From an uncultured virus (IMG/VR IMGVR_UViG_2630968639_000002) (Duplodnaviria; Heunggongvirae; Uroviricota; Caudoviricetes), in IMG/VR virus record IMGVR_UViG_2630968639_000002, positions 1 to 64,000 of that record: DNA of 64,000 nucleotides; one strand, given 5' to 3'. Position 1 is the stretch's first letter, and each line of letters starts with the position of its first letter. The translations under genes and the position numbers were made by a program. Below the pieces are notes generated by a model. It was not told the DNA's origin. It did not search any database and worked only from the letters and a program-made list of their open reading frames with translations. Shown piece after piece: positions 10,077 through 11,267 of this stretch.

Positions 10077-10466
10077 CTACATCACGGGACAATCATCAAA
10101 CTCGCCACTTCTTGCGTCGTTGATAATGTGAGTGATCACACCAAACACGGCATTGCTGCCCGTGCATCCATCGTCATCCTTTGGCAATGCTTCCTTCTTA
10201 CCGGTTCTTAAATCCTCCAGATGCTGACGTGGGTACTTCCGGTATCTTTTTACGCGATATTCCCCATCCAGAGCGCATACAAGCAGAGAACCATCAACCG
10301 GGGTAAGTGAGGAATCGACCACCAGCAATGCACCCTGTAATATTCCCTCACGATGATGACTATCAGCTGCCCTCATGAAGTAGGTCGCTGAAGGATGTCT
10401 AATTATCTGCTGATCAAGAGAAATACGGCTCTCAGCATAATCCGCCGCAGGAGAAGGGAAGCCCAT
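10077..10466 (-). CDS. humD: HumD/UmuD'-like S24 protein
   Basis: Starts MGFPSPAADY, equivalent to cleaved UmuD'; VKR motif; SOS box upstream. Confidence 0.85.
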   Translation of the reverse strand: MGFPSPAADYAESRISLDQQIIRHPSATYFMRAADSHHREGILQGALLVVDSSLTPVDGSLLVCALDGEYRVKRYRKYPRQHLEDLRTGKKEALPKDDDGCTGSNAVFGVITHIINDARSGEFDDCPVM

Positions 10467-10482
10467 AATACTCGCCTCTTAA

Positions 10483-10502
10483 TACTGTATACACATACAG
10501 TA
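10483..10502. promoter_or_regulatory. LexA (SOS) box upstream of humD
   Basis: TACTGTATACACATACAGTA = CTG-N10-CAG. Confidence 0.92.
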
Positions 10503-10739: not shown

Positions 10740-10797
10740 AATTCGCAAGACACTGATGTTGCAGTATTGAGGGTATGTTGGGTTAAAAATAGACATT

Positions 10798-10828
10798 AAA
10801 AAGCCCAGTTGACTAGGCTGGGCTTTTT
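10798..10828. terminator. bidirectional rho-independent terminator
   Basis: AAAAAGCCCAG-loop-CTGGGCTTTTT. Confidence 0.85.
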
Positions 10829-10881
10829 AAAAGGAAACAGAGTTTGCGGCTCTGTTCCTGAGCCATAAGTATCTGGCGACT
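10798..10881 (-). ncRNA. putative type I antitoxin sRNA (~84 nt)
   Basis: TTGATG(10916-10911)-17-TAATCT(10893-10888) promoter; 5' 20 nt complementary to 11035-11054; internal hairpin; intrinsic terminator. Confidence 0.7.
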
Positions 10882-11128
10882 GAATTAAGATTAACCGAAT
10901 GTACTGGATTCATCAAGAAAGGTTGAGTGGTCATACCAGGTAATAATGACCATTTACTAAACATCGTTGTTCTCAAAGAAGATTTAAGTCCAGGTTTTTG
11001 GTGACTCTAAAACCTTACCTTAACTCGAAATCGTGCCGTAAGTATCTGGCGACTACAGATATTGCAACTGCAAAGGCAAGCCCAAAGGTATTTGCAGCTA
11101 GGCGCGATAAAACTAAGTGAGGCCTGTT

Positions 11129-11212
11129 ATGGTTAACTTACTGTTCAAAATCGTGCCGCCGATGTTCGCGATTATCAAAGCGATCATTGAGTACGTAAAC
11201 CAGCGTCCATAA
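11129..11212 (+). CDS. putative type I toxin peptide MVNLLFKIVPPMFAIIKAIIEYVNQRP (27 aa)
   Basis: GAGG RBS, hydrophobic/amphipathic helix, terminator hairpin at 11226-11254; below the ORF-track size cutoff. Confidence 0.65.
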   Translation: MVNLLFKIVPPMFAIIKAIIEYVNQRP

Positions 11213-11267
11213 CGCTAGTTGCTACAGGCCCCATCAAGAGCATGGGGCCTCTTTATCGTACTATTGC

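Follow-up and report, generated by a model that had tools for sequence, protein, structure and literature searches.

A putative toxin-antitoxin module of type I, with a covarying antisense RNA and a small hydrophobic peptide, on SSU5-like phage-plasmids and related elements of Enterobacteriaceae

Does the unannotated DNA next to humD in an SSU5/pHCM2-like Escherichia coli phage-plasmid encode an RNA-controlled toxin that would tie the host to this element? The window analyzed here, a stretch of 64,000 nucleotides (64 kb), is part of a virus record of 73.8 kb, and the stretch shares 99.8-100% identity with plasmids of ~105-120 kb and with phage Cyrano. The locus is flanked by humD on one side and by a block of small accessory genes on the other, and RefSeq shows no features between the two. 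An earlier note, made from the letters of the window, had ascribed to this region the architecture of tisB/istR-1, zorO/orzO and dinQ/agrB; what this reading predicts at the level of sequence is indeed present and is conserved, with covariation, in relatives. We consider the locus to be a type I toxin-antitoxin (TA) module of the divergent, trans-pairing kind, with a presumed addiction role on the phage-plasmid, and assign to this reading a probability of about 0.75.

Antisense RNA, target and leader

The surroundings and the small RNA (sRNA) half of the locus, together with the target, comprise the following features:

10077-10466, minus strand: humD, S24 peptidase gene, neighbor of the locus
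10485-10500: perfect LexA box, CTGTATACACATACAG, at humD
10796-10830, both strands: bidirectional intrinsic terminator, a 13-bp perfect inverted repeat (10796-10808 / 10818-10830)
10797-10881, minus strand: predicted antitoxin sRNA, ~85 nt, the 3' end inferred from the U-run
10833-10858, minus strand: sRNA hairpin 1, plus-strand letters GGAAACAGAG / CTCTGTTCC; 88.4% of cells paired, both sides changed in 4 of 10 pairs
10862-10881, minus strand: seed, formed by the 20 nt at the sRNA 5' end and complementary to 11035-11054
10888-10916, minus strand: sRNA promoter, TTGATG-17-TAATCT, with +1 at A 10881
11035-11054, plus strand: target of the sRNA, within the 5' UTR and 75-94 nt before the ATG

The 20-nt direct repeat on which the original reading was built (10862-10881 and 11035-11054) is real and non-random: with up to 3 mismatches allowed, the 64-kb window contains only two matches to it (with 0 and 1 mismatch), and none of the 100 dinucleotide shuffles contains any. 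The claimed 20-bp duplex with one G-U is borne out, with 19 Watson-Crick pairs and 1 G-U, and the claimed distance of the target from the ORF is correct. The cognate seed duplex has a predicted energy of -38.5 kcal/mol vs -13.7 +/- 3.0 for 1000 shuffled seeds; this seed-only test was used instead of long-range duplex folding of the whole sRNA with the whole mRNA, where shuffles scored equally. In relatives, the pairing extends to as much as ~25 bp.

Among these relatives, the seed and the target change together, with at least six alleles. The variants that appear in both copies include the window type, an AATG type, GGCAGC (L005/L013/L064), TCCGG (L006), AAAACACTGG (L020/L051), GGCTACA (L038), GTTGTTAACCGG (L058) and CTAGC (L065). 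The 14 distinct best 20-mer pairs add up to 267 Watson-Crick positions, 12 wobble-compatible ones and a single mismatch, and in fixed alignment columns, the 20-nt core is free of mismatches in 18 of the 18 distinct pair types. The 12 differences between the copies, located at ~5 different sites, are all A to G or C to T when going from the sRNA-side copy to the target, so that a U-G or G-U pair is retained; given the small number of independent events, this one-direction bias alone corresponds to p of about 0.03. The cognate pair is, or comes close to being, the most stable one across alleles, with differences of 10-20 kcal/mol for those that have diverged strongly.

The predicted sRNA begins at its 5' end with a single-stranded seed, which is followed by hairpin 1, by a linker rich in A/U and, finally, by a terminator hairpin and its U-run; the predicted fold amounts to -32.5 kcal/mol. 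The leftward sigma70 promoter that had been claimed for it, with +1 at ~10881, is present as described and is kept in 21 distinct relatives: on the minus strand, the -35 (10916-10911) and -10 (10893-10888) hexamers are separated by 17 nt, and 6 nt lie between the -10 and the +1. This promoter was read from the sequence, and TTGATG-17-TAATCT is not among the sites listed by a stricter sigma-70 consensus scan. Across the 21 distinct upstream regions, the -35 is TTGAAG in 13, TTGATG in 7 and another hexamer in 1, and the computed picks for the -10 are TAAGCT (14), TAAGAT (2) and a shifted AATCTT with an 18-nt spacer (5), which, in our reading, is TAATCT with 17 nt in the same DNA. Computed spacer lengths are 17 nt (15 regions), 18 nt (5) and 16 nt (1), and the start lies 5-6 nt further on.

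Both the hairpin and the terminator that had been proposed to follow the seed were found, and both covary in 19 distinct relatives. In the 19 distinct sRNA sequences, 93.2% of the cells in the two helices are paired and 7 pairs (30 cells) have changed on both sides, values that none of the 500 shuffles reaches; when the helix partners are slid by 1-3 columns, pairing falls to 29-63%. The terminator helix, which is helix 2 of the sRNA, is 97.9% paired, and both sides have changed in 3 of its pairs; besides ending the sRNA, this terminator would halt plus-strand read-through from the humD side.

The stretch is contained in 14 public RNA libraries; because contigs from the 4 libraries that were examined span the flanks, too, these data show presence only. 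In two RNA-seq runs of one study, short contigs fuse Illumina adaptor letters to positions 10776 (X13) and 10869 (X14), which hints at abundant short fragments ending there. These positions match neither of the predicted sRNA ends (10797 and 10881); the one at 10869 lies within the sRNA-target duplex region and could be a cleavage product, and is not counted as evidence.

The leader of the peptide mRNA and the coding region downstream of it contain the remaining features:

10992-11015, plus strand: SL1, first conserved leader hairpin, AGGTTTT / AAAACCT with loop TGGTGACTCT; 3 of 7 pairs changed on both sides
11031-11037 with 11101-11107, plus strand: P2, long-range helix, TCGTGCC with GGCGCGA, closing the SL2+SL3 domain
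11042-11062, plus strand: SL2, target hairpin, GTATCTG / CAGATAT with 7-nt loop GCGACTA, from fold and covariation
11068-11097, plus strand: SL3, CTGCAAA...TTTGCAG, most conserved leader element, invariant in the alignment
11116-11145, plus strand: SD region, GAGG at 11119-11122, in a local hairpin with codons 3-5; one-sided changes only, modest support
11129-11212, plus strand: candidate toxin ORF (type B), 27 aa, MVNLLFKIVPPMFAIIKAIIEYVNQRP, preceded by GAGG at a distance of 6 nt
11226 to ~11250-11256, plus strand: intrinsic terminator of the toxin mRNA, with a terminator at the same place in relatives

In 21 distinct leaders, 93.4% of the helix cells pair and 6 pairs have changed on both sides, which none of the 500 shuffles equals. 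The target is formed by the 5' arm and the loop of SL2. This loop, GCGACUA, has an unpaired probability of 1.0 in the predicted ensemble, and its letters complement the six 5'-terminal bases of the sRNA, which suggests loop contact as the first step of the interaction. The 3' arm of SL2 follows the seed, with CACTG/CAGTG in L020/L051 and GTTAAC/GTTAAC in L058; because, in the AAAACACTGG and GTTAACCGG alleles, this arm has changed as well (to CAGTG and GTTAAC), the sRNA, the target and the hairpin partner of the target covary three ways. P2 is 95.2% paired, with 1 pair changed on both sides, and, in the folding model, pairing with the sRNA would open its 5' strand. The invariance of SL3 is due in part to the use of this hairpin as the search pattern, and L065, which was found by protein only, has a compensated version, CTGCAAG/CTTGCAG. 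Covariation across relatives, proposed in the earlier note as a check, is thus seen in the seed and target, in the sRNA helices and in the leader helices alike.

The SD is 97% paired in the predicted ensemble, and when the target is blocked in silico, the predicted accessibility of the SD is unchanged (0.03 vs 0.03), so that folding alone does not explain the repression mechanism. Because SL1 is conserved as an mRNA helix, the mRNA must start at or upstream of ~10991; SL1 is preceded by a conserved A/T-rich block, GATTTAAGT, which could be a processing site of a longer transcript. The promoter of the toxin mRNA, which the first reading had been unable to pin down, eluded us as well: no plus-strand sigma-70 site passes the scan of 10830-11035, and no site found by the promoter scan together with our own scoring across clades is common to all clades. 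In relatives, TTTACT-17-TTTAGT ends 1-4 nt before SL1, and in the clade of the window, 24 nt lie between the hexamers. The absence of a convincing sigma-70 promoter implies that the toxin may be poorly or conditionally transcribed. Between the divergent promoters, the E. coli clade carries an inverted repeat, TGGTCAT-N11-ATGACCA (10928-10952 in the window), which could serve as an operator or belong to a longer primary transcript; at the same place, there is GGAACC...GGTTCC in L004 and a tandem GGTTTAGAAC in L035/L044.

The candidate toxin and the spread of the module

The 27-aa ORF with its GAGG ribosome-binding site and its own terminator, all noted previously, are in place. Among 12 distinct 27-codon ORFs, 60 usable, non-independent pairs yield a median dN/dS of 0.175 and, by this comparison of codons, the peptide ORF is under purifying selection. 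The genes, the pairing, the RNA structures and the selection on the ORF are all supported by the sequence and its comparison among relatives. The best 19-residue Kyte-Doolittle window scores 1.85 in the peptide of the window and 1.85-2.26 across the peptides; the corresponding value for DinQ and DqlB is ~2.5, above the 1.85 of the candidate toxin, which has two prolines and three charged residues inside its putative helix. The peptides belong to two paralogous types that share the pattern L-L-x-K, central P, I-I, [ED]-[YF] and terminal R; some loci have type A in place of type B, and in others, both stand behind the same leader, type A first.

At E <= 10, the peptides have no matches in Pfam, NCBIfam and PHROGs save for one 0.16 match to an unknown phrog. 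The impression that the peptide is unlike the known toxins stands, in that it matches none of the known toxin models and the positive controls, DinQ and DqlB, match their own NCBIfam models with 54.2 and 73.5 bits, respectively. By exact look-up, the 27-aa and 31-aa forms are present in the protein collection, unnamed. The peptide and seed strings occur in none of the papers searched, the module sequences are absent from the searched supplements of Fozo 2010 and Kristiansen 2016 (all but one file of each), and neither a description of the module nor papers joining 'type I toxin' with SSU5, pHCM2, pECOH89 or pLF82 were found. It is, then, very probable, as judged from sequence comparison against Pfam, NCBIfam, PHROGs, Rfam and these papers, that the locus represents a new family of type I TA modules; the earlier suggestion of a possible new family holds within this same scope of libraries and papers.

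By blastn, 114 of the 5426 complete E. coli genomes searched carry the locus, at 105 places on plasmids and 10 on chromosomes; it was also detected in 98 of 72,556 PLSDB plasmids, from Escherichia, Citrobacter, Klebsiella, Enterobacter, Shigella and Kosakonia hosts, and in 2 of 50,697 phage records. The sRNA half and the toxin half co-occur (115 vs 116 E. coli records) and are never found apart. A pattern scan with SL3, the most conserved leader hairpin, as the query recovered true loci in 34 of 35 IMG/VR cases and in 3 of 12 cases from species-representative genomes, together representing 30 distinct 600-nt regions; the chance matches to the pattern (L008-L012, L014, L016, L018, L019 and L021; 9 of the 12 genome loci and 1 of the 35 viral ones) were dropped. 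Two loci, L023, which contains an N, and L060, which has several 1-nt indels, were excluded from the alignments. An additional relative, on a Klebsiella pneumoniae IncFIB conjugative plasmid, came from tblastn. The peptide profile, run against six frames of 401 Enterobacteriaceae species genomes, matched 5 genomes at E <= 0.001, 4 of these credibly; the match in G153 (19.5 bits over 12 residues) was taken as spurious, and the K-12 chromosome yielded no matches to the profile. Two of the 4 credible genomes are beyond the reach of the RNA pattern, and both of these protein-only relatives (L064 and L065) also have the sRNA and a matching target.

Overall, the relatives come from plasmids, phage-plasmids and prophages of E. 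coli, Citrobacter, Enterobacter, Klebsiella and Kluyvera. The module resides in unrelated contexts, namely, the SSU5-like phage-plasmid, RepB plasmids, the IncFIB conjugative plasmid and a chromosomal prophage remnant, which fits the behavior of autonomous TA modules. In chromosomal copies (L002, on an E. coli chromosome), it lies in a decayed prophage beside torI/intS, with a truncated S24 gene and IS3, a layout that implies joint movement of the humD-TA block into a different element. No feature is annotated under the matches in the annotated records checked, so that annotation overlooks the module almost everywhere.

Several individual records deserve comment. A near-identical copy of the E. 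coli phage-plasmid locus is found in a 29.6-kb contig binned as Bacillota (L015), which is probably a mis-binned contig. In L060 (CP088831.1), several 1-nt homopolymer differences are present, one of which frameshifts the peptide ORF after residue 19; these are either assembly errors or signs of an inactivated toxin candidate. In L059, an annotated 117-aa hypothetical protein (555-908) overlaps both the module's leader and its type A ORF and is probably a mis-called gene. Finally, a conserved non-coding block, AACCTCAATTTAAC...ATCAACTCTTGTACTGAAA...CTACTAGAATACT, is located just beyond the sRNA terminator in the Citrobacter/Enterobacter relatives and in the two protein-only matches (L003, ~1370-1440; L004, ~1160-1240; L006, ~1150-1225; L064 and L065, ~1081-1125), and is absent from the window.

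Known type I systems and alternative readings

In tisB/istR-1, under the standby-site model, a divergent sRNA pairs ~100 nt upstream of an RBS that is locked by structure, and TisB is an amphipathic membrane peptide of fewer than 30 aa. The locus described here has the divergent sRNA, the far-upstream pairing, the locked RBS and the amphipathic peptide of less than 30 aa in common with this system; unlike tisB/istR-1, it has no LexA box and resides on mobile elements, as opposed to the core chromosome. No relation to tisB/istR-1 in sequence was found, all Rfam, Pfam and NCBIfam families being under threshold. With zorO/orzO and zorP/orzP of E. coli O157:H7, the locus shares a divergent sRNA that pairs in the 5' UTR and sequence-specific sRNA/target alleles; the candidate toxin is not known to be related to ZorO. 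The Rfam OrzO-P model (RF02083) has no match in the window and matches L004 only, with 34.2 bits vs a gathering score of 60. In zorO/orzO, the long 5' UTR in which the divergent sRNA pairs hinders translation by itself, as described in PMC5397157. Rfam gave sub-threshold matches only; those to Thr_leader and to the Betaproteobacteria toxic sRNA merely cover the terminator, and those to AgrB, OrzO-P and RNAI are inconsistent among relatives; all of these were set aside.

The closest systems are dinQ/agrB of K-12, dqlA/dqlB of enterobacterial plasmids and DqlB/agrB of pOXA-48 (PMC5066626, PMC12365149). These systems and the present locus share a divergent, non-overlapping sRNA (~82-85 nt) composed of a 5' seed, a single internal hairpin and a terminator; its target, 20-35 nt in length, lies within an extended, structured 5' UTR; and the peptide has one helix and 27-31 aa, and is followed by a terminator of its own. 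Also in common are a plasmid-borne location and the leader motif TTTAAGTCC[A/T]GG followed by a hairpin with TGGTG in the loop. This motif marks the start of the conserved leader here and the start of the active +44 mRNA in dinQ/dql. Unlike in dinQ/dql, the target of the present locus is placed in a hairpin loop, the candidate toxin has a central Pro or Pro-Pro and a conserved E/D-Y...R tail, and some loci carry two tandem toxin paralogs.

Could the locus, then, be a highly diverged DinQ/AgrB-Dql branch that has kept the ancestral leader and sRNA around a replaced or diverged toxin? The identical order of elements and the shared motif with its TGGTG-loop hairpin are what such descent would leave, as are the end-to-end alignment of the window sRNA with Rfam AgrB (RF02891; 27.6 bits, E = 0.083) and the M-[IV]-N-L-L start common to DqlB and the type B peptide, with an hhalign P of 0.0053 for DqlB. 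The AgrB score, however, is under the gathering score of 40, and none of the 14 relatives matches AgrB, showing weak OrzO-P or RNAI matches instead, when agrA/agrB of K-12 score 106-108 bits; given that the pOXA-48 antitoxin does not match the AgrB model either, this test is weak for the dql branch. On the protein side, 6 peptides compared with NCBIfam NF041472 (DinQ) and NF041473 (DqlB) at E <= 10 give no matches, against the 54 and 73 bits of the controls, and hhalign assigns probabilities of 6.8% (DqlB) and 0.2% (DinQ). The nhmmer profile of the leader finds nothing in the dinQ or dqlB loci, BLAST of the leader against dinQ/dql returns 13-15-nt motifs only, and no LexA box (CTGT-N8-ACAG, <= 1 mismatch) occurs in 10830-11040, the nearest one being that at humD. 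Because all these formal tests of membership in DinQ/Dql failed, we file the locus as working like dinQ/agrB and not as a member of that family, and deem the diverged-branch origin fairly unlikely.

A different question is whether the peptide is a toxin at all: the sRNA-mRNA pair might be real, with the sRNA tuning the level of a small membrane protein under regulation, such as one that modulates a host membrane protein or serves as an exclusion factor. The evidence of pairing and coding fits such a role equally well, the peptide is only moderately hydrophobic and contains a PP motif, it matches no toxin family model, and the toxin promoter is weak or unclear. Taken together, however, the features amount to the type I TA signature laid out in PMC8594479 and PMC5066626: the sRNA is divergent, its target lies far upstream, the SD is locked, the peptide has 26-28 aa and the module moves between replicons as a self-contained unit. 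The two halves are never apart in the 115-116 E. coli records, and we regard a non-toxic membrane protein as an unlikely answer. A third possibility would be to take the 20-nt copies for DNA sites, such as operators of one protein, or for products of gene conversion, with antisense RNA not involved. Co-changing direct repeats are, to be sure, also expected of paired protein-binding sites; such sites, however, predict no bias of the kind seen in the 12 copy differences, all of which go in the direction that keeps the RNA pair. Furthermore, the similarity between the copies ends exactly at the +1 (10881) predicted by the conserved promoter, the sRNA-side copy is followed by two covarying hairpins and a U-run, and the target copy is embedded in a hairpin whose other arm covaries. 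An explanation in terms of DNA alone appears highly improbable.

Proposed mechanism and biological implications

For the type I TA module, which is the reading that we favor, we infer a scenario that extends to transcription, sRNA instability, the mode of repression, toxicity and the role in addiction. The ~85-nt sRNA would be made constitutively from the minus strand, from 10881 to ~10797, and its free 5' end would make first contact with the apical loop of SL2, within the peptide mRNA's leader. From there, pairing would grow to the 20-bp duplex (up to ~25 bp in relatives) at 75-94 nt ahead of the start codon, opening SL2 together with the closing helix P2, and the mRNA would be silenced, most likely, by RNase III cleavage, by blocking of the ribosome standby/entry region, or by both. 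Because the SD is locked locally and is unaffected by target blocking, it is through cleavage of the duplex and/or a block of the standby/entry site that repression probably works. The same mode of repression reportedly has been proposed for tisB/istR-1, and for dinQ/agrB, it has been demonstrated (PMC5066626). The 27-residue amphipathic hydrophobic peptide would become inserted into the inner membrane and damage the cell once the supply of the short-lived sRNA ends and, on a phage-plasmid, cells losing the element would be killed or arrested. The DqlB/agrB pair of pOXA-48, which has the same layout, is described in PMC12365149 as a toxic, sRNA-repressed addiction module.

A broader proposal, which we put forward tentatively and which may well turn out to be wrong, is that the family is specialized on phage-plasmids, prophages and plasmids of Enterobacteriaceae, with a conserved leader in front of interchangeable toxin cassettes (A, B and tandem) and with a target, displayed on a hairpin, that has split into at least six poorly cross-reacting seed alleles serving as private addiction barcodes. 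If so, each element would enforce its own retention, and a co-resident relative could not cover its loss.

SSU5-like phage-plasmids are common in E. coli and, to our knowledge, their stable inheritance has been little studied. Some SSU5-like elements, such as pECOH89, carry CTX-M-15, as reported in PMC3999498. On such elements, an unannotated RNA-controlled killer module would be a maintenance determinant, as DqlB/agrB is for pOXA-48. What makes the module interesting is the series of alleles, the tandem candidate toxins and its presence on widespread phage-plasmids. The type I TA field gains a candidate toxin family with a conserved proline core, along with cases of two candidate toxins under one antitoxin, and the natural series of compensated seed, target and hairpin alleles offers a ready-made system for exploring the evolution of antisense specificity.
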